From: an uncultured Alphaproteobacteria bacterium
Lineage (GTDB): Bacteria > Pseudomonadota > Alphaproteobacteria > RF32 > CAG-239
Length of the DNA: 64,000 nucleotides
Direction: 5' to 3'
Assembly (NCBI GenBank): GCA_944389095.1
Contig: CALXLC010000010.1
Location: 22,154 to 86,153, forward strand
Positions 1,904-61,472 of the stretch are shown one piece after another (the first letter of the stretch is position 1; the number at the start of each line of letters is the position of its first letter). The notes below the pieces were generated by a model. The model searched no databases and was not told the DNA's origin. It saw nothing but the letters and a program-made list of their open reading frames with translations. A program made the translations under genes and the position numbers.

Positions 1904-1943
1904 GGTGTTAATAGCTCCTTTGTAGCTTTTGGTTAAAACAAAA

Positions 1944-10218: not shown

Positions 10219-10244
10219 TCCTGAATTGCCGTATCCCTTCAGAA

Positions 10245-10287
10245 GAAACAGCCGCCGGATTTTCCGGCCGCTGTTTCTTTTTTTTTA
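10245..10287 (+). terminator. Rho-independent terminator after lipoprotein B
   Basis: gaaacagccgccggattttccggccgctgtttc hairpin plus 10-T run; same aaacagc...gctgttt stem motif as the 6084 terminator. Confidence 0.65.
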
Positions 10288-10388
10288 AATTCCGCGTTAT
10301 CCACATATCTCCCGCCATTTGCAAAATAAATAAAATTTTAAAATAATAACTATATACTGTCTGCAAACATGGATTAAGGAGAAACAAA

Positions 10389-11117
10389 ATGAAATGGTAT
10401 CACATTCTGGCCGTCTGTTGTTTTGCTGTTGCCGCCTCAACGACACAAGCTCAGGAAACGCCGCGGCTTCCCGCCGCCGAAGAAAACCAGAAATGGCAGC
10501 CCAATCCGGAATATAACACCATTTTGGAAGAAATTTCTTCCGCCGTCGGACAAAGCGCCGTCGCCAATATTACCGGCGCCGAACAGGTTTTTTGCTACCA
10601 GATAACCAACCGTCCCGAAAACTACACCGGATACACGCTTGACGGCATGGCCATCGTCGGTTTTTGCGGGATTATCAACGCCGAGCTCAAAACCATGATT
10701 ACCTCCGAACTTTTCATGAATCCCGAAAACATTTTGTTTGACGTTACCGAAGAATGCGTCATCCGTCCGCAGATTATGCTGCGTTTTGTCCGCGGCGTGG
10801 ATGCCACCGATGTCCTGCTGTCATCGCCCTGCCATGCCTTTGCCATCTTTTACGGCGGACAAGTCAACGCCTTCAACGCCAAACCGGCCGCACCGATTAT
10901 TGACGCGCTGGTCGAACCGTTGATTAAAGGCAAGGTCGACTTTGCCTCTCCGGCGCTGTTCAACCAATTGCTGCCAATCGGCGTTGCGCAGACAGAAGAA
11001 CAAAAAGCCCTGCTCAACAAAAAAAACGAACCCATTCGCAACTGGATTAAAACCCAAAAGGAAGAAGAAGCAGCCTCTGCCAAACGCGGCTGGAACAACA
11101 TTAACCTGAAATTATAG
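10389..11117 (+). CDS. Secreted hypothetical protein (242 aa)
   Basis: N-terminal signal peptide (AVAASTTQAQE), no recognisable catalytic motifs. Confidence 0.5.
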   Translation: MKWYHILAVCCFAVAASTTQAQETPRLPAAEENQKWQPNPEYNTILEEISSAVGQSAVANITGAEQVFCYQITNRPENYTGYTLDGMAIVGFCGIINAELKTMITSELFMNPENILFDVTEECVIRPQIMLRFVRGVDATDVLLSSPCHAFAIFYGGQVNAFNAKPAAPIIDALVEPLIKGKVDFASPALFNQLLPIGVAQTEEQKALLNKKNEPIRNWIKTQKEEEAASAKRGWNNINLKL

Positions 11118-11119
11118 AA

Positions 11120-11962: not shown

Positions 11963-11982
11963 ATCGCCAAAACATCAATCTG

Positions 11983-12012
11983 TCGGCTGACTAAAACTCA
12001 GCCGACTTTTTC
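11983..12012. terminator. Bidirectional terminator between convergent pheA and atpF
   Basis: gtcggctgactaaaactcagccgac hairpin flanked by T/A runs. Confidence 0.5.
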
Positions 12013-12600
12013 TATAGATTCGTCAATCAGCTTATCCAAATCTTTGGCATCCAAAGATTCCGCCAAAACTTTTTTGACAGCCGCAATTGCGCGTTCGGCC
12101 GTTTTTGCCGTAATTTCTCTGACGGCGTCTTCCTGTGCGCCGGCAACACGCAGCTTGGCTTCTTTTTCACGGGCGGCCATGTCACTTTCAAGCTTTGCCA
12201 GACTGTCCCGTTTAATCAGATTTATCTCACGCTCCGACCGGACCAAAATTTCCTGAGCCTCTTGCTCGGCCTGACGATATTTTTTTTCATATTCGGCCAG
12301 CAGCTTCTGGGCATCTTCCTTCAAATCGGCAGCATCCTGAATTCGTTTGGCAATATCTTCGCCGCGCTTCTGCAACATCCGGTATAATATTTTGCCTACC
12401 GGACGGGCCAGAGCAACAACGGCCACGACAAAAGAAACCGCAACCCAGAACTCTGCGCTTAAATAAAAAATCTCGTCATGACCGCTCATTTCGGCGGCGG
12501 TACTTTCAATTGCGTCCGCAACACTGCCGACCGCATTCAAAACGGCATCCTGCGTTGCGTTCAAAACCTCTTTGTCCGACAGCGTTTCTTCCAAAGCCAT
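11998..12600 (-). CDS. atpF: F0F1 ATP synthase subunit b
   Basis: Single N-terminal TM then long charged coiled coil (KRxxDIAKRIxDA...); last gene of the atpI-B-E-F'-F block. Confidence 0.75.
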   Translation of the reverse strand: MALEETLSDKEVLNATQDAVLNAVGSVADAIESTAAEMSGHDEIFYLSAEFWVAVSFVVAVVALARPVGKILYRMLQKRGEDIAKRIQDAADLKEDAQKLLAEYEKKYRQAEQEAQEILVRSEREINLIKRDSLAKLESDMAAREKEAKLRVAGAQEDAVREITAKTAERAIAAVKKVLAESLDAKDLDKLIDESIEKVG

Positions 12601-13085
12601 TATTTCTCGCCTCCGGTTTCTTTTACGGCAGCCTGCAAAGCTTTTGCAGACACTTTAAAGCCAAGTTTCTTGACCACCTCTCCGGCCAGTTCTGCGGCAA
12701 TTTCCTCTGCCTGTTTCATAACTTTTTCCTTTGAGGCCTGAATTTTTTTCTCACCCTCGCTGATCTGCCGGTTCAATTCTTCGCTCAAATCGGCCTGCCG
12801 CCGGTCAATCATATTTTTCAAATCCTGCTGGGTTTTCTGCAAGGATTGATTGGCCTCATCGGTAGCCTGCTTCAAAGCACTGTGATATCTTTCAAGAGCC
12901 TCCTCTGCCTTTTCCTTGATTTCAGCCGATTTTTCAAGATAGTCGTCAATTTTTTCGCGACGCAGGTTAATCATCTCCGCAATCCGCGGAATAATGATTT
13001 TGCTCATCACAAACAGCATTGCAAAAAAAGTAACGCTCAGCCAAAAAAGCTGTGACGGAAAAACGCTGAAATCCAACTGAGGCAT
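12600..13085 (-). CDS. F0F1 ATP synthase subunit b' (second b-type subunit)
   Basis: MPQLDFSVFPSQLFWL N-terminus, TM plus coiled coil; start overlaps the atpF stop, as in alphaproteobacterial atpF'/atpF pairs. Confidence 0.7.
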   Translation of the reverse strand: MPQLDFSVFPSQLFWLSVTFFAMLFVMSKIIIPRIAEMINLRREKIDDYLEKSAEIKEKAEEALERYHSALKQATDEANQSLQKTQQDLKNMIDRRQADLSEELNRQISEGEKKIQASKEKVMKQAEEIAAELAGEVVKKLGFKVSAKALQAAVKETGGEK

Positions 13086-13172
13086 AGCAAACTCCTGTTT
13101 TTATCAAAAATCCAGGACATCGGCGGCGGGAAACGTTTTCCGCTCCGCCGCAAACTCCCGAAATATTTTCTG

Positions 13173-13394
13173 TTAATTGCCGGTCAGCATAACCAAAGCG
13201 ATAACCAGAGCATACAGCGCAATCGCCTCAACGGCGGCAAAGCCTGCCCAGCCATAGATATCAACATCTTTTTTAACCTGCGGATTACGTCCGACGGTAG
13301 AAATAATGGTCGTCCAAACCTGAGAAACGCCCCAAGCGGCAGCCATCATCGACAAAGCGCACATACCAGCGCCAATATAAGCTAACGGTTCCAT
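13173..13394 (-). CDS. atpE: F0F1 ATP synthase subunit c
   Basis: 73-aa two-helix proteolipid with GRNP loop and conserved carboxylate helix. Confidence 0.8.
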   Translation of the reverse strand: MEPLAYIGAGMCALSMMAAAWGVSQVWTTIISTVGRNPQVKKDVDIYGWAGFAAVEAIALYALVIALVMLTGN

Positions 13395-13454
13395 TTGATT
13401 TCCTTTCCAAAAATTAAGTCGTTATCATCCACACAATAATAAACGAGTTTGTCA

Positions 13455-14177
13455 TCAATGCTCGTGCAGCGCGTCGCCCAGATAAATACAGCTTAAAACC
13501 GTATAAATAAAGGCTTGCAGCAATGCGATAAAGATTTCAAAACACACGATGCAGCAGTTAAACAGCACCGGCACAACGCCGGCCACGCCCAAAGCCACCA
13601 CAAAGCCGGCAATTATTTTCAGCATAATATGGCCCACCGTCATATTGGCGACCAAACGGACTGTCAGGCTGAACGGCTTTGACAAAAACGAAATCATTTC
13701 AATCGGCACAATCAGCGGAGCCAGCGCCATGGGAATCCCCCTGGGCATAAACGTCCTCAGCCAGCCAAGTTTTTTGCGTTTAATACCGATACAGATATTA
13801 AACAACAGGGCAATCAGCGACAAACTGCCGACAGCCGTCAGATGGGACGTAAACGTAAAGGCATACGGAAACAACCCCAGCAGATTGCCGAAGGCCACAT
13901 ACAAAAACATTGTAAAAATAAACGGAAAATACTTGAGCCCTTCCGGCCCCACATTTTCTCTCAGCAAATTGCTGATAAACTCATAAGCCCCTTCCGGAAC
14001 CGACTGCGCCGGCGACGGCACAATGCTGCGCTTCCGAAGACACACGGCCAGCAGCAAAGTGGACACGGCAGCCGCCAAAACCATAAACAGCGCCGAATTT
14101 GTAAAAGAAATATCCACGCCGCCGACTTCTATCGGAATCAGCGGCTTAATAACAAATTGTTCCATCGGATTGGACAT
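13455..14177 (-). CDS. atpB: F0F1 ATP synthase subunit a
   Basis: Multi-TM protein with conserved ...LTVRLVANMTVGH... arginine-containing helix. Confidence 0.85.
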   Translation of the reverse strand: MSNPMEQFVIKPLIPIEVGGVDISFTNSALFMVLAAAVSTLLLAVCLRKRSIVPSPAQSVPEGAYEFISNLLRENVGPEGLKYFPFIFTMFLYVAFGNLLGLFPYAFTFTSHLTAVGSLSLIALLFNICIGIKRKKLGWLRTFMPRGIPMALAPLIVPIEMISFLSKPFSLTVRLVANMTVGHIMLKIIAGFVVALGVAGVVPVLFNCCIVCFEIFIALLQAFIYTVLSCIYLGDALHEH

Positions 14178-14183
14178 TTCAAC

Positions 14184-14489
14184 TCACTCCTTACGTCGGC
14201 TTTCCTCGCTTTTCACAAAGCGGTAAACATTCAAGACACCGGCTCCGCCGCCTAAAAAAATAAACAGCACCAGAAACCATGGCTGGGTATTCAAAAACCT
14301 GTCCAGCAGATAACCGATTGCCGCCCCGACCAAAACGCCGGACAACAACTCGGTCCCCACCCGAAAACCGGCCTTTGAGGCATGCATGGCTTCCGATTCC
14401 TTTTTGGCCTTGCGCGCATCGGATTCTTTCTTTTTGAGGGAGGCTATCCGCGCTTCCAGCCTGGATATGTCTTCAGGTTTTCTTTTCAT
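14184..14489 (-). CDS. atpI: AtpI/AtpZ-like ATP synthase protein I
   Basis: Small protein, charged N-terminus plus two TM helices, immediately upstream of atpB. Confidence 0.55.
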   Translation of the reverse strand: MKRKPEDISRLEARIASLKKKESDARKAKKESEAMHASKAGFRVGTELLSGVLVGAAIGYLLDRFLNTQPWFLVLFIFLGGGAGVLNVYRFVKSEESRRKE

Positions 14490-14536
14490 ACCTCACCTTG
14501 TATACCCTAAAGTATTACGGAGTTGTTAAAGAAGTC

Positions 14537-15274
14537 CTAATTTTTGTTTTTGACGTCGATTTTTTGCTGCAAAATTTCATCAAATGTTTCAAAAGACTGC
14601 GCCCCCTGCAAAATCTCAAACCCGTCTTTGGATTTAATGACAAAAGAAGGCGTTCCCTGAATTTTCATCTGGGTTACCCCGTTCTGCCGGTTGGTCAAAA
14701 TCTCCCGGGCATTTTCATCATTTTTAAGGCAAGCCTTGGCCTTTTCCTGCCCCAGGCCGCTGAGCGCCGCATACTGCATCAGCACCTTCTGCGGATTGCG
14801 GGACAAACTCCAGTCGCGCTGTTTTTCAAACAAAACCTCCACAAACGGAAAATATTTGTCCGGCGCCACACACTCCGCCAGCAAAGCGCCGTCCATTGAC
14901 GCCTTGTCAATCGGAAATACCACAAAAACCAGACGCAGCAGCCCCTTATCAATATATTTTTCCTTCAACAACGGCAGCGTGTCCAGATGAAAATCCGCGC
15001 AATGGAAACAACCGAAGGACGAATATTCATAAAGCGTCACCGGGGCATTTGCCTTTCCCAGACTGTGTTCATCGGGCATAACATAATTGGCCGGCACGTC
15101 AAGCTTGTCCGGCAGCGCCAAATCCTGAGCCTGAGCAGATTTGACCAGCACAATCTCTCCGCCGTCGGTCATAACGAACCCCTTCCAGCTTAAATACATC
15201 CCCGCCGCAATAAAAAAGACCGCCACGGCCGCAATGAAAGAACTTATTTTTTTTATAATGTTTTCAAAAGTCAT
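14537..15274 (-). CDS. DsbA-family thiol:disulfide interchange protein (membrane-anchored)
   Basis: N-terminal TM, CFHC active-site motif in a thioredoxin fold; start taken at MTFENII (ATG ~15274), 4 nt after the upstream gene stop. Confidence 0.75.
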   Translation of the reverse strand: MTFENIIKKISSFIAAVAVFFIAAGMYLSWKGFVMTDGGEIVLVKSAQAQDLALPDKLDVPANYVMPDEHSLGKANAPVTLYEYSSFGCFHCADFHLDTLPLLKEKYIDKGLLRLVFVVFPIDKASMDGALLAECVAPDKYFPFVEVLFEKQRDWSLSRNPQKVLMQYAALSGLGQEKAKACLKNDENAREILTNRQNGVTQMKIQGTPSFVIKSKDGFEILQGAQSFETFDEILQQKIDVKNKN

Positions 15275-15278
15275 AATC

Positions 15279-15806
15279 TTATTTTCCGTCTTTGTTATTT
15301 CCGATAACGCTGCGCCCCAGCTTTTCGACAATCTCCTGCAGGGCGGGGTTTTGAATATCTTCACTCAGTTGTCTAATATAATTTTCTTCTTCACGGGTTA
15401 CAAGATTTTTTTCCGATCTTTGCACGGGCTTCTCGGCCAAAGGCAGAATTTCGGCGTTCTGAATAATCTTCAGGCGGCTGACGGCGCAATATCCGAAATA
15501 AGAGTTAACCTTGGCCAGAAGCAGCTTTTCCCGGTGTTGCAACTCCAGAGCAAAAGCGCCGCCCGGCACGGCAACATGCAGCACGCCGTCGGTTTTCTCC
15601 CCCCGTTTAAACTCTATTCTCTGTGGAAAAACATAATCGGCCAGTTCTTCGCCGACAATTTTGTCCCAGTTGGCAATCATATCGACTTCCACAAAACCTT
15701 TCTGCCCCAGAATGGAGCGGGCAAACGGCAGAATAGTCCGGGAAACCGCCTGCAAATCCCCTGTTTTGCGCTCATCGCTGACCGTATATGCTTCTTTTTT
15801 CTTCAT
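15279..15806 (-). CDS. DUF721-type (Zn-ribbon-like) protein
   Basis: Conserved VPGGAFALELQHREKLLLAKVNSYFGY block typical of DUF721; start placed at MKKKEAYTVS to avoid overlap with fliO. Confidence 0.55.
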   Translation of the reverse strand: MKKKEAYTVSDERKTGDLQAVSRTILPFARSILGQKGFVEVDMIANWDKIVGEELADYVFPQRIEFKRGEKTDGVLHVAVPGGAFALELQHREKLLLAKVNSYFGYCAVSRLKIIQNAEILPLAEKPVQRSEKNLVTREEENYIRQLSEDIQNPALQEIVEKLGRSVIGNNKDGK

Positions 15807-15905
15807 GGCGTCAAATTTAACAAACAATATCAACAACCGCAAGCCTTTTATTGACTTGCCGGCGCCGATAAGCCTATAATCAGCCTGAATTAGGGAGAAA
15901 AAATC

Positions 15906-16205
15906 ATGGGATGGCATACTTTTGCCCACGCTTTTCTGGCATTGATTTTCGTCATCGGACTGCTCCTGCTGACGGTCTGGCTGTTGAAATATTGTCAGCA
16001 AAAAGGATTGAACGGCAGATTAATCCGCAAAATAAACGCCGGACAAAAAATCGGAATTATCGAAACGCACCGGATTGACGCCCGGCACACGCTCGTTTTA
16101 TGCCGCTGCGGCCAAACGGAATATTTACTGCTGCTCGGAGCTGCTTCCGATTTGCTTGTTGACCGTATGCCGCTCAGAAAAAAAGGAGACCGGACCGATG
16201 AATAA
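15906..16205 (+). CDS. fliO: Flagellar biosynthesis protein FliO
   Basis: Single TM helix, C-terminal IGIIETHRIDARHTLVLCRCGQTEYLLLLGA resembles FliO; overlaps the fliP start. Confidence 0.6.
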   Translation: MGWHTFAHAFLALIFVIGLLLLTVWLLKYCQQKGLNGRLIRKINAGQKIGIIETHRIDARHTLVLCRCGQTEYLLLLGAASDLLVDRMPLRKKGDRTDE

Positions 16206-16938
16206 AAAGTTTTTGCTGTTTGCGCTCCTTGCCTTGTTCACGATTCTGTTCTGCGACACCGCCGCGGCCCAAAGCATTACCCTTAACATGGAAGACGCGC
16301 CCGGAGGCTCTGCAACGGCACGGATTTTCAGCGTTTTGATGCTGATAACGATTTTGTCCCTGGCACCTTCGATTTTAGTCATGATGACGTCATTTATCAG
16401 GATTTCCGTTGTTCTGTCCATTACCCGCAGCGCGCTTGCCACCAACACCACGCCGCCCAACATGGTTCTGGTTTCTCTGGCTCTGTTTCTGACCTTTTTT
16501 GTCATGGCGCCGACTTTTGAAAAAGCCTGGGACGAAGGCATCAGCCCGATTATCGAAGATAAGGTCGACATTATGGACGGCCTGGAAAAAGCCGTTGTTC
16601 CGCTCAAAGAATTTATGGTCAGCAACACCCGCGAAAAAGACCTGCTGCTGTTTACGGATTTGGCCAAAGAAAAACCGGCGGCAAGCGTTGAGGAAACGCC
16701 GCTCAAAATCGCTGTTCCGGCTTTTATGATAAGCGAACTGCGACGGGCGTTTGAAATCGGATTTCTGGTTTTTATTCCCTTTCTGATAATCGACATGGTC
16801 ATTGCGTCCGTCCTCATGTCAATGGGTATGATGATGCTGCCGCCGACCGTACTGGCTCTGCCGTTCAAAGTAATTTTCTTTGTGTTGGTGGACGGCTGGT
16901 ATCTGCTGGCCGGCTCTTTGGTCAACAGTTTTCATTAA
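16198..16938 (+). CDS. fliP: Flagellar export apparatus protein FliP
   Basis: Signal peptide then conserved FliP TM core (PSILVMMTSFIRISVVLSITRSALATNTTPPN...). Confidence 0.9.
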   Translation: MNKKFLLFALLALFTILFCDTAAAQSITLNMEDAPGGSATARIFSVLMLITILSLAPSILVMMTSFIRISVVLSITRSALATNTTPPNMVLVSLALFLTFFVMAPTFEKAWDEGISPIIEDKVDIMDGLEKAVVPLKEFMVSNTREKDLLLFTDLAKEKPAASVEETPLKIAVPAFMISELRRAFEIGFLVFIPFLIIDMVIASVLMSMGMMMLPPTVLALPFKVIFFVLVDGWYLLAGSLVNSFH

Positions 16939-16942
16939 CCGC

Positions 16943-16976
16943 AAAAAAAGCCTCCGCAAAGGAGGCTTTTTGTTGT
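16943..16976. terminator. Bidirectional terminator between fliP and the convergent OMP gene
   Basis: aaaaagcctccgcaaaggaggcttttt hairpin. Confidence 0.6.
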
Positions 16977-16995
16977 TTCATAAACCGGACGCCGC

Positions 16996-17601
16996 TTAGA
17001 ACGTAAAGCGAAGACCGCCGTAATATTCGTGAGCATTGACATTGGCTTTTTCGATATCGCCCATATCAACATAACGATAACCGGCATCAAGATTCAAACA
17101 TCTGTTCAGACGCAGGGACAAACCGCCGCCCAAACTCCAGGTAAAGTTGTCGGAAGAATATGTATAAGTTCTAGAATCTGTATTAGTCACATCCAGACGC
17201 GTCCAGCCGATACCGCCGCTGACATACGGACTGATCCAGTAATTGGGCATAAAATCAATATAAGCATTGGCCATAAAGCTGTCAGACTCCAAAACAGAGT
17301 GGCGTTTTCCCTCTATTGGCCCCGAACCTGCCGGATAAGTATCATCCGAGTCATCGCGATAAACATATTCCGCTTCAATCCGGAAATAAGAATAGCGATA
17401 ACCGATGGCACCGGACATCATCCAGACATCGCCGAAATCAGCGCGGGAAGAAACCGCCGCCGAATCATTTTTGTCATTCAGATTGTAACTGTCCATACCG
17501 CCGCGGACAGCCAGATAAAAACCGTCGCGAGCCGAAGCCGTGGACGCGGCTGCCATAGACAAAACCAAAGCAGAAGCCAAGGTAACCATTGATTTTTTCA
17601 T
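16996..17601 (-). CDS. Small outer-membrane beta-barrel protein (OmpA-like/Omp25-type)
   Basis: MKKSMVTLASALVLSMAAASTASA signal peptide, beta-strand pattern, C-terminal GLRFTF. Confidence 0.7.
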   Translation of the reverse strand: MKKSMVTLASALVLSMAAASTASARDGFYLAVRGGMDSYNLNDKNDSAAVSSRADFGDVWMMSGAIGYRYSYFRIEAEYVYRDDSDDTYPAGSGPIEGKRHSVLESDSFMANAYIDFMPNYWISPYVSGGIGWTRLDVTNTDSRTYTYSSDNFTWSLGGGLSLRLNRCLNLDAGYRYVDMGDIEKANVNAHEYYGGLRFTF

Positions 17602-17744
17602 GATAGTCTCCATAAAGTTTTCCGTAAAATTTGTCCAACTATACAACTAAACTCAAAATTAATCAAGCGAAAAATGCATCAATTTTATTTTTTATTTGCC
17701 CAGACTGTAGCATGGCTTCGTTATTATTTTGTTAATAGCGCAAA

Positions 17745-17781
17745 AAAAATACCGTTTTCCTAAAAAAAACGGTATTTTTTC
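17745..17781. terminator. Terminator downstream of the 1020-aa pseudopilin-like gene
   Basis: aaaataccgttttcctaaaaaaaacggtatttttt hairpin. Confidence 0.55.
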
Positions 17782-17799: not shown

Positions 17800-20700
17800 T
17801 TACCAGGGATCGTCATATCCCAGAGCCGGATCGTTCAACCGGTCACGATAAGACGAATCTCCGGAATTGTACCCGGCACCGCCGGTACTCCGTCCGGTTT
17901 TGGCATACCCCGAACGGAAATTGGCAATCTGGTCATACCCGGTATCAACCAGGTCGCTTTTCCACGACCAGTCGGGGTTAGACATGACGCGCCGTTCAAA
18001 ATAGCAGTAAACATTTGAGATTGCGGTCATTTCCTCGTTATAAACCGGAAACAGGTTCCACACGATTTTTCCGCGCAGACTGTTGGCCGTCGCGCTTCCC
18101 GCCACGTCGGTCAGGTAATCCTGATAATCGGAGCCGTGATACAAAAAGCCCATAATCGCATGCCAGCCCAAAAAGTCGCTGTTGCGGATGGTTCCCATAT
18201 TTCCGCTTGTGGAAGACGTCGAATTGTCACGCACGCCGCTGATGGTCGTGTTCAGCCAGGTATTGGTCTGGAAAGTCATCGGCATACCTTGTTCAAACTC
18301 ATGCGTATGCACACCCGAAGATCCGTCCGCCTCGGCAATAATCAAACGACCGGACGCCGGATCGCGGGGAGCCACAAAATAACTCTTAAACCGCTGAGCG
18401 ACTTCGGTTTCCGGAATTCCCGTCGGCGGCATGGCCACATAATAAGCTTCCGCCATTTTCCAGCGAATGGGATTAATGGTAATAACTTTGGAATAGCCCG
18501 GCGGACATTGGGGAGTCGGCACAAAACCGAGCCACGGCGTCGTAATACAGTCCATATCGCCGTTGCAGTCGCTTGGCTGATTTTCCACAACAATTGAATT
18601 TCCGCTCTGCCGAACCGTATAATCCTCCCAGCTGCGGCTGCCGCTGGTCGGCTCCTCATAAGTATTATCAATAACATAAATACCTTTATTGATAAAGTCG
18701 GGCAAAATATCGCTCAAACGCGCGCCGCCGCGGGTAGTCAGCTTAATATCGTGCATAACCGAGGTATATGCGGGATTAACCTGATAAGCGTCATACGGCT
18801 TAGTCGCGCCGGCCTCACGTTCATTGGCATCCGGTCCCGGAAATTCATAAGCCTGATTGGCCAGCAGCCGGTCTGCTTTAATATAGCCCGGAACATCCTG
18901 CTCACCTTTGTCGGCCTCCAAATCAGAACGATCCGACGTTCCGCCCGCCGGCAGCGAAATCATTCCTTCGCGCCGGATAAGCACGCCGTCATCCAACACG
19001 GTATTGGTAAAAGCTCCCGTACTGTCCGTCACGGACTTGTTGCGGGCATCATTGGCAAAAAGCATTTTGTCTTCGTCAATCACGATATTGTCGGAAACCG
19101 CCTTAATCAGCGTCGCGTCCATTTCAATATTTCCGGTTGTCATTTCCAAACTGGCCGTACTGCCGCCGCCGGCGCCGTAGCTATGCTCCAACAACAGGCT
19201 ATCTTGATTAACGTAAATCGAATTCGGATTCTCTGCACCGGTATTACGAATGGCAATTTGATTGCTTTTTAAATCAACGGTCTGCTTTCCGCCGTTGGCA
19301 CTCAGCCCGATTTCAGTACCGGTAATTTCCGCGCCGCCGGAATCCAACTCCACCTTGCCGCCGAGATCACCGCCGCCTTGTGCCGTCAAAACACCGGAAG
19401 ACAAAGCATCTAACGTTGAATCGGTCACTTTGACCCCGTTGGCGTCATCCAATTTAACAAACGCACCGCTGGCATCCGTACCGACCACCGCGCTTCCCAC
19501 ATACAATTTGGCTTCCGTATCGGAAATCGACAGTCTGTCACCCACCTGCATATTGTTAACGGCAATGTCGACGCTGGAATTATCGGCCAAAAAGTTATAA
19601 GTCCCGTCAGCCATCCGGCCACCGCCCAAAATACCGCGTGCGTAAATATTTTCGGCATCAAAATCACCGCCGATGCTCAAATCATTTTTAATATAAGCGT
19701 TATTCTCTACCAAAAGGCTGCCGTCCGAAGAGTTTGACTGCCCCACAACCAGACTGTAGTTATTGGTATCTCCCGAAAAACCGGAGGCGCCGCTGATTGT
19801 GCCGCCCTTGACATTGACGCCGGAGCTGATTTCAGCACCGCCTTCAACCGTCAGCTTGCCGCTGCCGTCATCGCCTTTTTTAATCTCGGTATCGCCGGTA
19901 ATTGTCGTCTTGCCCGTAATTGAGCTGTCTCCCGTCACGTCAATACCGCCTTCGGTAACCGTAACCTTACCGGCTGCCTTGATTTTATCCGTATCGTTAA
20001 CCAGCAGCAGGCTGTCGGCAATATTGGCGCTGCCTGCCGTCAGCAGATTCGAAATCGTTGCCGCGCCTTCCACGACCAGATTGGCCTCTTTTTGGGTTTC
20101 CCCTTCATCGGCACCGGTAATCAAAACCTCGCCGCTGTCGCTGTCGGCAATCAGGCGGTGAACCTCGCCGATGGAATTACCGCCCATATACAGATTAACC
20201 TGCATGGTGTTGTATTCAACATCGCCCATACTGTCATCACGAAACAAAACATGCTCCGTTCCGGCGCCGGAACTCGCGTTAACCGCATGAATGGAACTCG
20301 AGGCAATACTGCCGTTGGGAGCCGTCCCCAAATCATAGTCACCCAATGCGGCGGCCCATCCGCCCTGCACGCCGTTGGCAACATTATCTTCCACAATGGC
20401 GCCGTTGGCCCCAATCATGGATGCGATTTTGGAAGAACGGACAATCGACAAATCGTTTTTTATCGGCGCCAGCACCAACCCCGTTATCGACGCGTGTTCC
20501 TGAGGCGTACCCTCGTCAACCACACTTTTCTTATACGCCATCTTAAAAGCGGAAAACAATTTTGATTCGTCCAGATTAAACCCGTACGGCAGATACGGCT
20601 CAATATCTTCGGGCAAAACCTCCTGAATATCCGGACTGCCCGACATCGTAAAATCAACGTAATTATCCTTGATGTAGTCATCCAGAGCCTTTGACAGAGT

Positions 20701-20862
20701 ACGCATTTGCGCCGCGGCATTAATATCCTGCAGCTCGGTGGTCCTCTCCGCGGCCTTTTTATACAACACCGGCGTCACCATGGTTATCAGCCCGAGCATG
20801 GCCAGAGCCTCCACCATCATGCTGCCCTTCTGGGCCGATTTGTAATTAAAACGTTTCAACAT
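17800..20862 (-). CDS. Giant (1020 aa) TadE/TadG-like pseudopilin-like protein with Gly-rich repeats
   Basis: N-terminus KGSMMVEALAMLGLITMVTPVLY matches the TadE/prepilin leader (G then hydrophobic stretch with Glu at +5); remainder Gly/Ser/Asn/Asp-rich repetitive; GAGGAG RBS. Confidence 0.6.
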   Translation of the reverse strand: MLKRFNYKSAQKGSMMVEALAMLGLITMVTPVLYKKAAERTTELQDINAAAQMRTLSKALDDYIKDNYVDFTMSGSPDIQEVLPEDIEPYLPYGFNLDESKLFSAFKMAYKKSVVDEGTPQEHASITGLVLAPIKNDLSIVRSSKIASMIGANGAIVEDNVANGVQGGWAAALGDYDLGTAPNGSIASSSIHAVNASSGAGTEHVLFRDDSMGDVEYNTMQVNLYMGGNSIGEVHRLIADSDSGEVLITGADEGETQKEANLVVEGAATISNLLTAGSANIADSLLLVNDTDKIKAAGKVTVTEGGIDVTGDSSITGKTTITGDTEIKKGDDGSGKLTVEGGAEISSGVNVKGGTISGASGFSGDTNNYSLVVGQSNSSDGSLLVENNAYIKNDLSIGGDFDAENIYARGILGGGRMADGTYNFLADNSSVDIAVNNMQVGDRLSISDTEAKLYVGSAVVGTDASGAFVKLDDANGVKVTDSTLDALSSGVLTAQGGGDLGGKVELDSGGAEITGTEIGLSANGGKQTVDLKSNQIAIRNTGAENPNSIYVNQDSLLLEHSYGAGGGSTASLEMTTGNIEMDATLIKAVSDNIVIDEDKMLFANDARNKSVTDSTGAFTNTVLDDGVLIRREGMISLPAGGTSDRSDLEADKGEQDVPGYIKADRLLANQAYEFPGPDANEREAGATKPYDAYQVNPAYTSVMHDIKLTTRGGARLSDILPDFINKGIYVIDNTYEEPTSGSRSWEDYTVRQSGNSIVVENQPSDCNGDMDCITTPWLGFVPTPQCPPGYSKVITINPIRWKMAEAYYVAMPPTGIPETEVAQRFKSYFVAPRDPASGRLIIAEADGSSGVHTHEFEQGMPMTFQTNTWLNTTISGVRDNSTSSTSGNMGTIRNSDFLGWHAIMGFLYHGSDYQDYLTDVAGSATANSLRGKIVWNLFPVYNEEMTAISNVYCYFERRVMSNPDWSWKSDLVDTGYDQIANFRSGYAKTGRSTGGAGYNSGDSSYRDRLNDPALGYDDPW

Positions 20863-20886
20863 CGTTCTTCTCCTCTGTCGAACTGA

Positions 20887-21555
20887 CTACACCGACGAAA
20901 GATAAACCAAACACACCCAGCCCTTGCTCAAATCGCAGACTTCCTTAAACGTTGCGTCTTCCACCACTGCCGAAGGCACATAAATATCCGCCCGGTCACG
21001 GTCAATAATCCTCACGGACGAACCCGATATGTTTTTGTCCGTACTGGTTCCGGCCAAAACCGGCGCCGTATATCCGAACATTGTCCCGCCTTCAACCGTA
21101 TTGCGGAGGGCATTCATAAAATCAACATTCGGCTCCTCCAGCTCCGTCGCCTGATTAATCCAGCGAGTCGGTATCACGCCGTAGGTCACAAGCATTTTTT
21201 TGTTTTTTCTGACGCTGCATTGCGCCTGTTCTCCGTAACTGACGGTCATATCCTCGTTCATGCAGAAAATCTGACTGATATAAGCCGGATCGTTATAATG
21301 TCCGAACGCAATATACGGATCCAAATCCTCATCCGCAATAACGCCGGGACTGTACTCCACATTTGGAGGATTGCTGACATAAGGCTTTTTGCGGTATTTC
21401 ACATAATCGCGGGCCGCTTTGTGCTTGGTAACCAGTTTTTCCACCGCGGCCTCGGCCAAAGGCTCGACCGTAATCTGCCGGATGTCTGCCCGCGGCGAAA
21501 GCGTATATGACGCCAGCACGGCCAGAAATGTTGCCAAAATCACCCAAATATACAT
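20887..21555 (-). CDS. Membrane-anchored hypothetical protein (222 aa) co-oriented with the giant pseudopilin-like gene
   Basis: Single N-terminal TM (MYIWVILATFLAVLASY), 25-nt gap to the downstream gene. Confidence 0.5.
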   Translation of the reverse strand: MYIWVILATFLAVLASYTLSPRADIRQITVEPLAEAAVEKLVTKHKAARDYVKYRKKPYVSNPPNVEYSPGVIADEDLDPYIAFGHYNDPAYISQIFCMNEDMTVSYGEQAQCSVRKNKKMLVTYGVIPTRWINQATELEEPNVDFMNALRNTVEGGTMFGYTAPVLAGTSTDKNISGSSVRIIDRDRADIYVPSAVVEDATFKEVCDLSKGWVCLVYLSSV

Positions 21556-21834
21556 GAGCAGTCCTCAAAAACCTTTTCAATCTTTTTATATTTTAGCATA
21601 AAAAAGGTTTCAAATCTATTAAATAACTAAAAATTCCCAAGATTTCACATTACTGAAACAATCTTCGTCCGCCCGCGACACCGTTTTACCTTCTGCTAAC
21701 TTTTTTGCGTTAAACTTTCGACAGGACCTAAAACAAACTAAACGTTTAATAAGTGAGAGATTTGCGTTTATTTATAAAAATAATGCTGTACAATGGGGGC
21801 AGGTTTAAACCGGCATAAATTTCTGGAGCGGACA

Positions 21835-22371
21835 ATGGTTAATTTCAACGATAATTTCGACGACGAGGAGCATCTTGAGGAAGCAACCCGCGTAAACCGC
21901 CGGAAGGTATTGCTTTTCCTTGTTCCTGCCGTAATTGTCATCGGGCTTTCGGTCGGGTTTTACTATGCCTTCAATCATCGTTTTGGCGAACACCTCAATT
22001 ACAGTATCGTCAAAAACGTTGCCGAAGACGACACCGGCCAAAAATCAGAGTCCGTCACCGTGTTTTACGAGCTCCCGGAGGTATCGGCCAAAGTAAGAAA
22101 ATCGGACGGCGGTTCGGAAACCGTAAAAATGAAAATCAGCCTGGAGCTTTCCCGGGTTGAGGATATTCCGACCGTTGAAGGCCTTCTGCCCCAGATTAAT
22201 GATGCCGTCATCTCCCATACATTGGCGCTGACGTCGGATGAAATCTCCGGTTCCGACGGCCTCTACTGGCTCAAAGAAGAACTGTTGTACCGCATCAACC
22301 TGCTGGTGGCGCCGCTTAAAGTTTCCGGTTTGAATTTCAGAAATTTTGAAATTCAGGAAGCCGAACAATAA
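21835..22371 (+). CDS. fliL: Flagellar basal-body-associated protein FliL
   Basis: N-terminal TM; C-terminal LKEELLYRINLLVAPLKV...F is FliL-like; GGAG RBS before ATG 21835. Confidence 0.75.
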   Translation: MVNFNDNFDDEEHLEEATRVNRRKVLLFLVPAVIVIGLSVGFYYAFNHRFGEHLNYSIVKNVAEDDTGQKSESVTVFYELPEVSAKVRKSDGGSETVKMKISLELSRVEDIPTVEGLLPQINDAVISHTLALTSDEISGSDGLYWLKEELLYRINLLVAPLKVSGLNFRNFEIQEAEQ

Positions 22372-22389
22372 TGTAAAGGATAGCAAAAC

Positions 22390-23466
22390 GTGGCTGAAGA
22401 AGAAAACAAAAAAAACGAAGAGAACAAAACCGACACCAGTTGGGCCGACAGCATAAAAGTCCAAAACCCGGAAGATGCTTCGGACGGAACGGATAACACC
22501 GATTCCAAAATTCTCAATCAGGAAGAAATAGACAGCCTGTTGGGATACACCAACGAAGACGACGAAGACTATCATGCCAACAAAACCGGCGTGCGGGCCA
22601 TCTTAAATTCCAGCATGGTTTCTTACGAGCGTTTGCCCATGCTCGAAATTGTTTTTGACCGGCTTATCCGCCTGATGGCAACATCCCTGCGCAATTTTAC
22701 GCAGGACAACGTTGAAGTCTCGCTGGACAGCATTGAATCAATGCGTTTCGGCGAATACATCGATTCGTTGACTTTGCCGACCCTGCTCAATGTGTTCAAG
22801 GCAGAGGAATGGGACAACTACGGCCTGATGTCGCTGGACAGTTCTCTGATTTATTCCATGGTCGATGTCTTGCTCGGCGGACGCCGGGGAACGGCGGCCA
22901 TGCGCATTGAAGGGCGCCCCTATACCACCATTGAGCTGAATATTGTCAAAGAAATGATTCAGCTGATTTTGGTCGACCTCTCAACGGCCTTTGATCCGAT
23001 TACCTCCGTCAATTTTGCCTTTGATCGTTTGGAAACCAACCCTCGTTTTGCCACAATCTCCCGTCTGTCGAACGCCGTCATTGTGGCACATCTGCGCATT
23101 GACATGGAAGACCGCGGCGGAAAAATCGACCTTATGATTCCCTACGCAACGCTGGAACCCGTCCGCGAACTTCTGCTCCAGATGTTTATGGGCGAAAGAT
23201 TCGGCCGCGACAGTATTTGGGAAAACCACCTGATGTCCCAGCTATGGGATACCGAAATCGAAATTCGCGCCGTTCTTAAAGAAACGGAAATCAAACTCGG
23301 CGAAATCTCCACATGGGAAAAAGGGTCCTTCCTGCCGTTGGACATGTTTCCGCACGAACAGGTCACCGTCGTCTGCGGCGATGTTTCCCTCCTCACCGGC
23401 TACATGGGACGCAAAAGCGACCATATCGTCATCAAAGTAGAAGGAAAGGCAGAAAAAAATGACTAG
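22390..23466 (+). CDS. fliM: Flagellar motor switch protein FliM
   Basis: EEIDSLLG N-terminal CheY-binding-like motif, central FliM domain, C-terminal FliN-like SpoA segment; GTG start. Confidence 0.85.
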   Translation: MAEEENKKNEENKTDTSWADSIKVQNPEDASDGTDNTDSKILNQEEIDSLLGYTNEDDEDYHANKTGVRAILNSSMVSYERLPMLEIVFDRLIRLMATSLRNFTQDNVEVSLDSIESMRFGEYIDSLTLPTLLNVFKAEEWDNYGLMSLDSSLIYSMVDVLLGGRRGTAAMRIEGRPYTTIELNIVKEMIQLILVDLSTAFDPITSVNFAFDRLETNPRFATISRLSNAVIVAHLRIDMEDRGGKIDLMIPYATLEPVRELLLQMFMGERFGRDSIWENHLMSQLWDTEIEIRAVLKETEIKLGEISTWEKGSFLPLDMFPHEQVTVVCGDVSLLTGYMGRKSDHIVIKVEGKAEKND

Positions 23467-23932
23467 TCTGGAATTGCTGATAAACCTGATTATCATAGCT
23501 CTGCTGGTTCCGACCATTATTTATGCTTACCGGCTGAACAAAAACCTGGAAATCCTGCGCCGCAACCAAAACGGTCTGGCCCAGCTCGTCAACGCGTTAA
23601 ATGACGCAACGTTCAAAGCCGAAAACAGCATCCCGAAGCTGAAAAGTGTCACCGAACATTCTTCGGAAGGCCTAAAAGAAGTCGTCGACAGCGCTAAAGA
23701 AATCAAGGACGATTTGCTGTTTATCAACGAACGCGCCGACAATCTGGCAGACCGGCTGGAACAGGTCATCAACGACGGCCGCCATCTCAAACCGGGAAAC
23801 GCTGAACCGGCGCCCCTGTTTGACGGTTACGAAAAAACATCTTCGGCGTCCGACGCCAAAACGGATGATGCCGACGGCGGCCGCTCCGAGGCCGAAATGG
23901 AACTGCTGAAAGCATTGCGTTCAATAAAATAA
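23459..23932 (+). CDS. Flagellar-cluster small membrane protein (hypothetical)
   Basis: N-terminal TM then coiled coil, acidic tail; overlaps the fliM stop. Confidence 0.5.
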   Translation: MTSLELLINLIIIALLVPTIIYAYRLNKNLEILRRNQNGLAQLVNALNDATFKAENSIPKLKSVTEHSSEGLKEVVDSAKEIKDDLLFINERADNLADRLEQVINDGRHLKPGNAEPAPLFDGYEKTSSASDAKTDDADGGRSEAEMELLKALRSIK

Positions 23933-23946
23933 GATAAGGTTAATCA

Positions 23947-24597
23947 ATGTCTGCAAAAAAATTCAAATTTCGTTTACTGCCGTTTTTTATCTTTATGGCT
24001 GTTTTAACCCTCAGCATCAAGGTAAATAACGTTTTTGACCTTTACAACCGCCCAACCGGCCGGCACCGTATTACGATTTCACAGGCAGAAGCGCTGGCAG
24101 AAGAAAAAATTGCCAAAGAAAACGCCGAGTTGGGTAAAGTTCTGGAACAAGGCGGTCCCGCCAGCGGAACAGCGGGAACGCAGGCGCCGAACACTTCGTT
24201 CAGCCAATCGGAAATTATGATTCTGCAGGAGCTTGCCGAACGCCGTGAAGCGCTTGATATCCGTGCCAAAGAAATTGACAAGAGAGCCATCCAGCTCAAA
24301 GTCGCCGAAGAAGAAATCAACAAAAAATTACAGCAGCTTCAGGAATATGAAAAAAAGCTCCAGAAACTGGTTTATGAATATACCGAAAAAGAAAAGGAAA
24401 ACATTAACTCTTTGGTAAAACTCTATTCATCAATGAAACCCAAAGACGCTGCGCGCATTTTCAACACGCTGGACACGGACATCACGGTTGCTTTGCTCAA
24501 AAACATGAAACCGACCAGCTCCTCCTCCATTTTATCGCAAATGGATTCCGAAAAAGCCAAGCAGGTAACTTCCGAGTTAATCGGCAATAATATTTAG
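23947..24597 (+). CDS. motE: MotE-like protein with MgtE-N-like domain
   Basis: N-terminal TM, coiled coil, C-terminal DAARIFNTLDTDITVALLKNMKPTSSSSILSQMDSEKA resembles the MgtE_N/MotE motif. Confidence 0.55.
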   Translation: MSAKKFKFRLLPFFIFMAVLTLSIKVNNVFDLYNRPTGRHRITISQAEALAEEKIAKENAELGKVLEQGGPASGTAGTQAPNTSFSQSEIMILQELAERREALDIRAKEIDKRAIQLKVAEEEINKKLQQLQEYEKKLQKLVYEYTEKEKENINSLVKLYSSMKPKDAARIFNTLDTDITVALLKNMKPTSSSSILSQMDSEKAKQVTSELIGNNI

Positions 24598-24606
24598 GGG
24601 AAAATA

Positions 24607-27159
24607 TTGAAGCGCACGGGCAGAAATATCCTGTATTTTGTTTTAGGCGGCCTTTGGCTGACGATTGCGGCGGCAAATGCGGAAGAACCTTCCGACATCA
24701 AAATAGAAAACCTGCCGCAGCCGGCACGAACCGGACAGGTTAACGTCACGACGGAACGCAGCCTGACAACTTTGTCGTCAATCGGCGCACAACAGGTCCT
24801 TCCCGCCACCAATCAAATCGCAAGCCTGAGTTTTTCTTGGAACACTCCCGTTAATCTGGCCGTCTTTCAACGTCAGAAAAAACTTTGGATTGTATTTGAC
24901 CACCGGCAGGCCATTGACGTCAAAGAACTCAAAAAAACAGCCGGCGATCTGGCCTCAAACATTGTGCAGCTGCCGCACCCGAATGCTGCCGTCATCCAGA
25001 TGGTTCCGGCCGAGGGCGTTCGTTATTCCGTTCGTAAAGAAGGATTGCTGTGGATTATGGACCTCTTCAGAAATGACCTCCCCAAGCGGCCGGTCAAAGA
25101 CGTTACCATCTACACACAGCAAGACAGCCTGCAACATGCCTATATGTTTATTCCGACTGAAAATTCGGGAAATATCGTCAACGTTATCGATCCCGATGTC
25201 GGTGATATCATCTCCGTTGCCCCGACCGCCGACATCGGCTACGGCGTCAACAATCCCTACCATTACCCCGAGTTTGATTTGCTGAACACGGAACAAGGCG
25301 TTGCCATGGCAATGAAAGCGCCTGATATAACAATCTCCAGAACCAACACCGGCCTGCTCATCAGAGCACCCGAAAGAGGCCTTAGCATATCCAAAGACTT
25401 AGACAATCTGCGCCGCAAAGAACTCTACAGCAAACGGGGAGAAACCCTATACGGCTTTGATTTTGAAGTTTCCCCCCAACTTTTGAATATGAATTTTACC
25501 GATGCCGTCAACCAGCTTAAGCAAGATATTTTGGCCGCCCCGCAAAACAGCAGAAACCAGGTGCGGCTTGAACTGGTCAAATACTATCTGGCCAAAGGCC
25601 TGGGTACCAATGCCCTGACTATGCTGGAACAGATGCTGCGCGCCAAACTTCCCGAAACGACCAGCGCCAAGTTTCATGCGCTGCTGGGAATTGCCAACTT
25701 TTTGGTTCGCCGTTATCCTGAAGCTGTCAAAGAATTTGAATATGGCAATCTTCCCGAAAACGATGACGCCGTATTTTGGCGCAGTTTGGCGCAAAGCGCT
25801 TACCAACACAAAGAAGAAAACAACGCCGTTTTATTTGCCTACCTGCCGCTGATTCGCGAATATCCTCAGGAAATCCGCGACCGCATTGCCGCTATCGGTG
25901 CGGCAACGGCCTTGCGTGCCGGAGATGATTTGGCCGCCCAAAATTTCATAGACATCTTGAAAAGAGATGACGGCAGATTAAAAAACCGGGACACCCAAAT
26001 CGATTACCTATCCGCCAAAAAAACCGAACTTCAGGGATACCCGCGCAACGCCATTCGGGAATACACCCGCATCGGCGAAATGGATGACCTCCGTTACTCG
26101 TCGCTGGCCCGTTATGACAATGCCGTCCTGCGGCAGCAAATCGGTACTTTGCCGCTCAAAGAAGCTATTGCGGAGTTGGAGCGGCTGCGCTTTGCCTGGA
26201 GCGAAAAGGATTTCAAATGGAATTTGCTCAACCGGCTGGCACAATACTATGAAAAAGATTTTGATTATTACAATGCCCTCAAAACAATGAAAGAATCCCT
26301 GATTCTGGCCGACCCTGCCCAAAAAGAAACAATGCTCCGAAAAATGGTCGGCCTGTTTGAAGACATCTTCATTGACAACCGGGGAGACAGCAAACTTTCT
26401 GCCGTAAAAGCCCTTGCCCTGTATAACGACTTTGAATGGCTCGGCCGCCTCAGTCCCCGCCATAACGAAATTACCATCAAACTGGCTGACCGGCTGGTCG
26501 CCGTAGATTTGTTGCCGCGGGCGGGAGACCTGTTGGAACAGGTATTGGCCGACACCTCAAAGCTCACACCGTTGGAACAGGCCAAAGTCGGCGCCAGAAT
26601 GGCCGTCATTCTGCTCTTTGACAACAAATATGACAGCGCACTCGAAATTCTGGAAGAAACCGAATCAGACAACCTTCCCTACCAAATTCAGGCACAGCGG
26701 CGCGTCATCAAAGCCCGAGCCCTGGCCAGCACCAACCGGGTAGACGAAGCTCTGGAACTTCTGGCCGAAGATACCGGTAAAAACGCCATTATGCTGAAAA
26801 GCGAAATCTACTGGAATGCCGGCCAGTGGAACAATGTGGCGGACACAATTAAATACCTGATAGAAAAACCCAAACCGGGACAAGAGCTCTCTCCCGAACA
26901 AATCGGTTATATACTGGATTGGGCGACTGCGCTGAAAAAATCCGGACGGGAAACAGTTTTGGTCAGACTTCGCAACAAGTTTAAACCTTATTTTGATAAA
27001 ACCAAATACAGCAGCACTTTTAATATCTTGACCAATCACCTGGAAACAGATAAGGTTGATTTAAAGGAAATTAATAATATAGTAAACGACGTACAAATGT
27101 ACAGCAACTTTACCAAAATTTATAATGAGTCGTTTAAGGAAGAATCCGACAATAAATGA
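24607..27159 (+). CDS. Large secreted TPR-repeat protein (850 aa) at the end of the flagellar block
   Basis: Signal peptide ([10 protein letters not shown]), multiple TPR-like helical repeats; TTG start. Confidence 0.55.
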
Positions 27160-56389: not shown

Positions 56390-56392
56390 AAC

Positions 56393-59912: not shown

Positions 59913-59914
59913 GC

Positions 59915-61090: not shown

Positions 61091-61104
61091 AAAAGGAACG
61101 AACC

Positions 61105-61377: not shown

Positions 61378-61472
61378 AATTTAATAATCAATAATAAAAA
61401 CTACGCGATGTCGCCGTTTTTTGTTAAACAAAGAGTATCGGCGCCCGCAGTTCCGAAGGAATAAACAAAAAA

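Follow-up and report, generated by a model that had tools for sequence, protein, structure and literature searches.

Modular pilins, in which a further module is grafted onto a pilin module, are widespread and are expected at the filament tip, the size of the large ones being compatible only with that position (PMC8179133). CofB, from the CFA/III pilus of enterotoxigenic Escherichia coli (ETEC), and TcpB, from the toxin-coregulated pilus (TCP) of Vibrio cholerae, are built from a pilin module, a beta-repeat and a beta-sandwich, are located at the tip, initiate assembly and, in an adapter role, dock the secreted proteins CofJ and TcpF, respectively; PilB (vWA) and PilC (lectin) of Streptococcus sanguinis and ComZ (beta-solenoid) of Thermus likewise combine a pilin module with a grafted one (PMC8179133). 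PilV of the IncI-complex thin pili (type IVb) is a minor pilin adhesin with a class III signal (PMC9045228). The gene analyzed here lies on a 64,000-nucleotide stretch of contig CALXLC010000010.1 (assembly GCA_944389095.1, positions 22,154 to 86,153 of the forward strand; hereafter the window) from an uncultured member of the Alphaproteobacteria (RF32; CAG-239). It encodes a protein of 1020 amino acids (aa), referred to below as the giant protein, whose residues 1 to ~240 very probably form a prepilin module of the PilV type; the protein as a whole is read, with moderate confidence, as a tip-located, modular, type IVb-like minor pilin and adhesin of PilV lineage.

A preliminary description of the window had given the open reading frame (ORF) its exact span and its 1020 residues, both of which stand, and had left unsaid that it lies on the minus strand; the idea that it encodes an oversized minor pilin or adhesin gains support from the homology of the leader and ~235 N-terminal residues to PilV. 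Judged from sequence and conservation, the product would run from a 13-aa leader through a pilin module ending at residue ~240 and a variable stalk of ~380 aa to a conserved, cysteine-containing domain of ~400 aa. The gene and the parts of its product are as follows:

17800..20862, minus strand: gene for the giant PilV-like modular pilin, a complete, uninterrupted ORF of 1020 codons plus stop.
20824..20862, minus strand: class III (prepilin-type) leader, residues 1-13, MLKRFNYKSAQKG, assigned from the invariance of Gly(-1) and the alignment with the PilV leader.
20761..20823, minus strand: the N-terminal, hydrophobic half of the pilin helix, made up of residues 14-34, SMMVEALAMLGLITMVTPVLY; Glu18 would be residue +5 of the mature protein.
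20137..20823, minus strand: PilV-like pilin module (Shufflon_N-related), residues 14-242, assigned by hhalign, BLASTP, Pfam and AlphaFold2 (AF2).
19003..20136, minus strand: variable, G/S/T/N/D-rich and beta-strand-rich middle, residues 243-620, presumed to be a stalk or spacer.
17803..19002, minus strand: conserved C-terminal domain, residues 621-1020, delimited by alignment conservation.

The pilin module is recognized by comparison with PilV, for which the reference was a single pil operon taken from an IncK2/Z plasmid. When the profile of the family N-domains was compared with this PilV by hhalign, the two aligned with a probability of 98.2% (E 3.5e-14) over 216 columns, leader included, and pairwise BLASTP of the window protein alone gave E 4e-7; with the full-length family profile, homology was confined to residues 10-242 of the giant protein and 5-223 of PilV. 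The hhalign alignment pairs QKG/SMMVEALAMLGLITMVTPVLY of the giant protein with DKG/FVLFEILAGLIVIGIATPMIY of PilV (whose leader ends DDKG/FVLFE; slashes mark the cleavage site), with coinciding cleavage-site Gly, Glu5 and TP..Y motif. Further on, DDYIKDNY is aligned with RNYIADNN and YLPYGFN with YLKQGFN, and the alignment ends with VLYR..G...NTMQT.LYMGGN.I set on RLYRF..G...NQMHTAINMGGNNI, giving the motif LYR...N.M.T...MGGN.I. Within the family, 18 of 46 N-domains matched the Pfam model PF04917 (Shufflon_N, the PilV constant region; best E 6.7e-10), protein residues ~40-234 falling on profile positions ~10-192 of 324, and the window copy alone did not match this model at E<=1. A tblastn search of one of the Shufflon_N-matching N-domains against 72,556 plasmids returned 1172 records at ~28% identity (best E 2e-3); the 15 plasmid matches listed are all annotated as 'shufflon system plasmid conjugative transfer pilus tip adhesin PilV'. 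Of the NCBIfam models, just two were matched, weakly, by several N-domains: GspG (four members, E 5.5e-3) and the ComGG pilin (four members, E 0.019). The AF2 model of the full-length protein has a mean predicted local distance difference test score (pLDDT) of 59, with residues 40-190 at 80-90, and predicts a long helix at residues 2-66 followed by a beta-sheet with strands and short helices, an order of elements reminiscent of a pilin. It is accordingly the PilV homology, and not the motif alone, that supports the core minor-pilin reading.

The giant protein begins MLKRFNYKSAQKG/SMMVEALAMLGLITMVTPVLYKKAAERTTELQD, with the junction QKG/SMMVE, and from this sequence we infer cleavage after Gly13. 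The only strongly hydrophobic 19-residue segments of the protein are those starting at residues 13-17, and a six-frame search of the window for G-x4-E with 14 uncharged residues after it returned this leader and one other match, an irrelevant one inside the ATP synthase c subunit. Because Gly(-1) and Glu(+5) are both invariant in all 196 homologues compared (120 database proteins and 76 locus translations) at an overall identity of just 30-60%, the motif is judged not to be a product of chance and the putative class III signal to be under selection; the leader that the preliminary description had recognized from its cleavage-site Gly, hydrophobic helix and Glu at +5 is thus borne out by this invariance together with the homology to PilV. 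Position +1 is Ser in 192 of the 196 and Gly or Thr in the remainder, K/R predominates at position -2 and Q/E stands at -3, leaders being usually 12-13 residues long; divergent members of 1266-1303 aa hold the same pattern (e.g., RGG/LMIEA and ETG/TLLIEA). The N-terminal helix is unusually conserved across the family, as (S)MMVEALAMLGLITMVTPVLYKKAAERTTELQDI, with E18, A19, A21, L23, L25, I26, T30, P31 and Y34 invariant. Type IVb leaders comprise 13-30 residues with M, L, W or S at +1, a class that a 13-residue leader with Ser at +1 would fit (PMC9045228).

The likeness to PilV takes in the leader and the hydrophobic helix as well as the pilin module in full. In each protein the leader is short and basic with Gly as its last residue, Glu occupies +5, and the pilin module is followed by additional C-terminal sequence with a presumed target-binding role; nevertheless, PilV has ~430-475 aa, so that the giant protein is over twice as long, and the two are unrelated past residue ~242. 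The C-terminus of PilV is variable and exchanged by a shufflon, made up of sfx repeats and the Rci recombinase, whereas the giant protein has no shufflon and its C-terminus is a conserved part: neither an sfx-like set of inverted repeats nor a recombinase adjoins the gene, and a repeat search nearby found just chance-level short repeats and a terminator hairpin. Likewise, PilV is encoded as the last gene of a type IVb pilL-pilV operon on an enterobacterial plasmid, whereas the giant gene is chromosomal, in an uncultured gut alphaproteobacterium, and lies in no such operon, pilN, pilQ, pilR, pilS and pilU being absent from its surroundings in the window and in 82 related loci. Given that shufflon and operon are both missing and that only the pilin module is shared, the giant protein is not a PilV orthologue.

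In design, the giant protein also resembles CofB and TcpB, which consist of a pilin module, a beta-rich linker and a C-terminal beta domain (PMC8179133), and the gene for a Sec-secreted protein, described below as P242, often follows it, as secreted partners go with CofB and TcpB. There is, however, no significant sequence or fold similarity to either, and the giant protein is about twice their size. With the streptococcal and Thermus modular pilins it shares the plan of a pilin module plus a grafted module, for which a tip location is expected (PMC8179133). The published survey of modular pilins required the N-terminal motif IPR012902, and its largest case has 860 aa (PMC8179133). The giant family, having no match to the TIGR02532/N_methyl model, would be missed by such a survey; at 1020-1300 aa it exceeds that largest case, and its grafted domains match no signature.

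Past the pilin module, conservation is lowest over residues ~243-620 (column identity 0-0.5, many indels), and the family as a whole ranges from 900 to 1300 aa. The protein had been described as dominated by degenerate G/S/N/D/T-rich repeats; the composition holds for the middle third only (residues 236-620, with 50% G+S+T+N+D and 14% Gly), and neither self-BLAST nor Tandem Repeats Finder detected any internal repeat in the protein or its gene. The flanking domains, of ~235 residues at the N-terminus and ~400 at the C-terminus, are conserved and free of repeats. Over residues 411-602, AF2 predicts short strands in a ladder (pLDDT up to 89); a precomputed Pfam match to bactofilin, a beta-helix family, exists for one homologue, and Foldseek found a local match to the C-terminal beta-helix of VgrG (58 columns, probability 0.97). 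A solenoid-like stalk is plausible, and conserved ends flanking a hypervariable, length-variable middle fit a surface-exposed stalk.

Conservation is highest over residues 621-1020, where the segment PAYTSVMHDIKLTTRGGARLSDILPDFINKGIYV is almost invariant, four cysteines (C766, C772, C786 and C953) are conserved and the protein ends in a Trp shared by all 41 aligned sequences. The domain belongs to no Pfam family and has no PDB sequence match; nor did PDB sequence searches with the whole protein and with profiles of the N-domain, the C-domain and P242 return anything meaningful. Its AF2 model, built from 86 sequences, reached a pLDDT of 67 and a predicted template modelling score (pTM) of 0.54. 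TcpB chains are the top PDB match of this model in Foldseek and rank 7th and 13th for the full-length model (pLDDT 59), with E values of 0.14-0.6 and probabilities <=0.2; scores at this noise level make TcpB a lead but no evidence.

The giant gene is judged, from the sequences compared, to be real and constrained and to belong to one large, unannotated family of oversized modular pilins. Databases hold an identical entry (P0001) and more than 449 homologue clusters, nearly all of 900-1100 aa, and the listed homologues are all unnamed or called hypothetical. In a HMMER search of 1.84 billion cluster representatives, 336 matches reached E<=1e-30 and 1686 reached E<=1e-3. The top 150 belong without exception to the family and measure roughly 300-1300 aa; a few are short and probably represent fragments. 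In a scan of one genome per GTDB species, the gene was present in 277 species. Among the listed records, the carriers are nearly all uncultured gut or rumen Alphaproteobacteria, one (L070) being labelled Lactobacillaceae; they include 'Proteobacteria bacterium CAG:495', Candidatus Scatocola, 'Azospirillum sp. UMGS63' and many metagenome-assembled genomes (MAGs) from humans, ruminants and chickens. A search of the literature on the RF32 lineage for pili or flagella returned nothing relevant. Two genomes are irregular in this respect. On CAG:495 scaffold HF995322.1 (L021, about 10001-13028), the member is split into two ORFs, the first of which (361 aa) carries the pilin N-terminus, suggesting a frameshift, an assembly error or a pseudogene. 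The MAG CATGXW01 has two contigs (L036 and L037), each with the C-terminal part of a member (59% and 54% identical to the window protein), and may hold two paralogues or be a strain-mixed bin.

Around the giant gene, the following features bear on its expression and on its possible partners:

20870..20874, minus strand: ribosome-binding site AGGAG, read from the sequence.
20887..21555, minus strand: P222, the upstream, co-oriented gene for a leaderless, pilin-like protein of 222 aa.
21556..21792: intergenic region of 237 bp common to the P222-giant pair and the divergent fliL-fliM operon.
17744..17780: hairpin, a perfect 15-bp palindrome between A/T runs, 20 nt past the stop codon of the giant gene.
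10389..11117, plus strand: P242, a Sec-signal protein of 242 aa with four invariant cysteines.

The giant gene starts with ATG, the AGGAG lies 7 nt 5' of it, and 24 nt separate the stop codon of P222 from this start; by these features, the giant gene is predicted to be closely coupled in translation to P222. The hairpin is likely a bidirectional terminator. Promoters are presumed to lie in the 237-bp intergenic region, where a simple consensus scan passed no promoter-like site.

P222 is the most faithful companion of the giant gene. In 77 of 81 related loci, a homologue directly precedes the giant gene in the same orientation, mostly across a gap of 3-27 nt; the two are kept side by side in every lineage examined, and in the most divergent clades P222 is the only conserved neighbour, the other genes there being housekeeping genes. 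The protein starts MYIWVILATF in the window and MY(I/L)W..LATF in every genome, has four conserved cysteines and has no leader, no Gly(-1) and no Glu5. Compared by hhalign with the helix and loop region of the giant N-domain, the P222 profile gave a probability of 87% (E 3.8e-6) over 66 columns, and its best match among the IncK2/Z Pil proteins was PilV, weakly (E 0.008); beyond this signal, neither P222 nor P242 matched any IncK2/Z Pil protein in hhalign. If the two pilin-like sequences are set in register, DY stands at 50-51 in both, and since Met1 of P222 then coincides with Gly(-1) in the giant protein, P222 looks like a pilin made without its leader. We know of no precedent for a leaderless pilin-like partner of this kind. 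The tip pseudopilin GspK lacks Glu +5 as well, the likeness of P222 to pilins being moderate (the 87% and 66 columns just given); GspK nevertheless has a normal cleaved leader, whereas P222 has none at all.

P242 is a looser associate: in 28 of 78 informative loci it is the next gene after the giant gene, in the same orientation and 18-181 nt away. All copies have a Sec-type signal peptide, and no Pfam or PDB family was found for the protein. In the window it stands 6.7 kb from the giant gene and on the opposite strand. There, and in closer relatives, an inverted block (10389-17646 in the window) lies between the two; it contains fliP, a DUF721 gene, a DsbA-like gene, ATP synthase genes, pheA and P242 and was recognized by comparison with related loci such as L046, L047 and L067. 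It points to an inversion or rearrangement particular to the lineage, one breakpoint of which lies just past the giant gene.

On the other side of the intergenic region, the divergent neighbour in 56 of 72 informative loci is a gene series of fliL, fliM, a DUF6468 gene, an FlbB-like gene, a gene for an 850-aa protein and uvrB. In the window, this block up to the 850-aa gene occupies 21793-27159 on the plus strand, fliL and fliM being followed by the DUF6468 gene (23459-23932), the FlbB-like gene (23947-24597) and the 850-aa gene (24607-27159). The FlbB-like product matches the spirochaete flagellar collar protein FlbB (NF047368, E 5e-10) and also MgtE_N; the 850-aa protein, putatively of the tetratricopeptide repeat (TPR) type, has no Pfam match and a weak match to the SctY chaperone. 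About 60 related genomes conserve the fliL-fliM-collar-like block, which suggests that the flagellar motor of this lineage is elaborated in the periplasm by a collar- or scaffold-like structure.

Taken together, the PilV-type module, the grafted domains and the conserved pair invite a model in which, by analogy with PilV, CofB and TcpB, the precursor of the giant protein would insert in the inner membrane and a prepilin peptidase of family A24, encoded elsewhere in the genome, would cut the leader after Gly13. The N-terminal helix would then bring the protein in at the start of assembly, and hence at the tip of a type IV filament, where it would probably form a complex with P222; the stalk would hold the C-terminal domain away from the filament, and that domain would bind a ligand or dock a partner such as P242. 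This model rests on the strict conservation of Gly and Glu, the size of the protein and the precedent of CofB and TcpB.

A number of results weigh against this model of a tip-located minor pilin. The window protein matched nothing in Pfam, NCBIfam or the PDB sequences, and the window copy did not match the pilin models, including N_methyl (PF07963/TIGR02532, IPR012902), for which the 46 family N-domains also gave no match at E<=1; beside this missing match stand the Ser instead of Phe at +1 and a divergent helix sequence. Structure prediction, which the preliminary description had recommended, gave a mixed outcome, the helix at residues 2-66 and the beta-sheet being modelled and the Foldseek search with the full-length model returning no significant match; the model of the C-terminal domain had none either in PDB or BFVD. 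No gene for a prepilin peptidase, ATPase, platform protein, secretin or major pilin lies in the window; the 10 kb beyond each of its ends and, in ~90 loci of diverse lineages, the 10 kb on either side of the giant gene are likewise free of pilus machinery genes. The operon conserved as divergent neighbour is flagellar and not a pilus operon. Lastly, the most distal domain of the giant protein is the most conserved, whereas the C-terminus of PilV is variable.

Further searches for machinery agree with these negatives. In tblastn, nine IncK2/Z proteins (PilM, N, O2, P, Q, R, S, T and U) found nothing in the 82 loci (1.63 Mb) or the window, the only matches of the IncK2/Z pil operon there being those of PilV to the giant protein and its homologues; a hidden Markov model (HMM) of the family N-terminus found no second pilin among all ORF segments of the 82 loci, and the contexts of divergent members held neither pilus machinery nor a second pilin. 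Since a peptidase and machinery are absent from the window and the related loci, processing and incorporation into a filament are steps that we infer. As to the missing model match, which the preliminary description had named, together with a predicted ordinary Sec signal peptide, as grounds for abandoning a prepilin signal, it proved a misleading guide: the window copy matches no prepilin model, and the family is homologous to PilV.

The preliminary description had also pointed to Tad pseudopilins by way of TadE and TadG/VWA models. That route led nowhere, as PF07811, PF13400 and VWA were matched by neither the protein nor the 46 N-domains at E<=1, and a Tad pseudopilin identity is ruled out by Pfam and NCBIfam scans in which TadE, TadG, VWA and N_methyl all went unmatched. 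The giant protein does share with TadE, TadF and TadG an alphaproteobacterial context and a G/xxxxE-type cleavage motif, and its 'VEA' past the cleavage site resembles the 'VEFA' of TadE; nevertheless, the long amphipathic continuation of its helix and its homology to PilV point to type IVb.

Among the alternatives, it is possible, if unlikely, that the pilin-like N-terminus serves as a filament-independent anchor in the inner membrane, uncleaved or cleaved without polymerization, for a protein with a role in the envelope and possibly in the flagellar motor. The prevalence of the flagellar block as divergent neighbour, the lack of a pilus machinery gene near any family member and the high conservation of the C-terminal domain, as expected of a fixed protein-protein interface, all speak for this anchor. 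However, uvrB is conserved in the same block, so the flagellar synteny may be inherited gene order, and ~13 loci, including those of all the most divergent clades, keep the P222-giant pair with no fli gene within 10 kb. The strict invariance of Gly(-1) and Glu(+5) would, moreover, be hard to explain for a plain anchor, and a hypervariable middle in a family ranging over several hundred residues in length would be unfit for a periplasmic strut of fixed span.

About equally improbable is a secretion pseudopilus, in which the P222-giant pair would cap a short filament, either type II secretion-like or type IVb and secretion-competent, that exports or presents P242, the giant protein not itself being an adhesin. 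In keeping with such a role, P242 has a Sec signal and four invariant cysteines and is encoded directly downstream in the 28 loci noted above, P222 shares the missing Glu5 of GspK, four N-domains match the GspG family weakly, and TcpB is the top, if non-significant, Foldseek match of the C-terminal model. Yet no gene of a type II secretion system (T2SS) occurs in any sequence examined, P242 is missing from the neighbourhood in 50 of the 78 informative loci and from that of every divergent clade, and the TcpB matches are, as said, at noise level.

That the giant protein is instead an ordinary Sec-secreted or autotransporter-like repetitive adhesin that resembles a prepilin by chance is very improbable and already contradicted, for although it is large and beta-rich with a G/S/T/N/D-rich middle, has an invariant C-terminal Trp superficially like an outer-membrane beta-signal and lies in a window with an outer-membrane beta-barrel gene downstream, the homology to PilV spans the leader and the whole 216 columns, the hydrophobic segment carries the invariant Glu and is followed by no AxA-type site, the protein bears no autotransporter or Sec-adhesin Pfam domain, the terminal GYDDPW is no alternating beta-strand motif, and the beta-barrel gene occurs downstream in just 15 of 81 loci.

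The reading as a tip-located minor pilin and adhesin also admits a bolder version, offered as speculation and doubtful at present: the P222-giant pair could be the priming or tip complex of an unrecognized type IV filament system in a major uncultured alphaproteobacterial lineage of the gut, with P222 'born mature' and bypassing the peptidase and a C-terminal domain of new fold docking P242. Alternatively, the flagellar motor, whose fliL-fliM-collar-like genes are the conserved divergent neighbour, could have recruited the pair for its periplasmic scaffold.

Elsewhere in the window, several loci merit brief mention. Judged from its genes (fliP, fliL, fliM, F-type ATP synthase genes and two [FeFe]-hydrogenases), the source would be a flagellated anaerobe. 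Two paralogous lipoproteins of 917 and 1272 aa (2454-5207 and 6400-10218, both plus strand), each with a signal peptide followed by Cys and neither with a Pfam match, are nearly identical in their N- and C-terminal regions, the 1272-aa one having extra internal modules of ~200 aa; between them, 5356-6066 (plus strand) encodes a 236-aa signal-peptide protein that has, by eye, the look of an outer-membrane beta-barrel and no Pfam match. At 58149-62933 (plus strand), a SpoIIE/PP2C phosphatase gene lies between two genes for [FeFe]-hydrogenase large-subunit-like proteins, the first with a PF04060 Fe-S domain, an arrangement reminiscent of sensory hydrogenase-phosphatase signalling modules; two tandem EAL-domain proteins are encoded just upstream of this block on the other strand (55094-57673). 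The gene at 63100-63744 (minus strand) encodes a Cys-rich protein that has no Pfam match and is internally duplicated, motifs such as SVPANAFCSNYYSSCPSKCSAWSCNSGY occurring twice; this gene is probably cut by the end of the window, the related contigs having versions of 456-565 aa. At the other end, a 642-aa ORF at 8-1936 (plus strand) has a low-complexity, implausible translation and is probably spurious, since related contigs (L087 and L088) call a gene of 751-780 aa on the opposite strand.

The locus described here represents a new family, unnamed or hypothetical in every listed source, with at least 336 clusters at 50% identity and 277 species genomes of an alphaproteobacterial lineage that is common, though uncultured, in gut and rumen. 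With it, modular type IV pilins reach 1000-1300 residues, and whole families are seen to escape surveys that depend on the canonical N-methyl motif. To our knowledge, the PilV-type module has so far been known from conjugative plasmids and a few pathogen islands; here it occurs in a chromosomal two-gene module with a leaderless, pilin-like partner. The C-terminal domain of ~400 residues is a new target for structure determination and ligand discovery and, if this lineage makes type IV filaments, the giant protein would be the obvious candidate for a host- or particle-binding tip.

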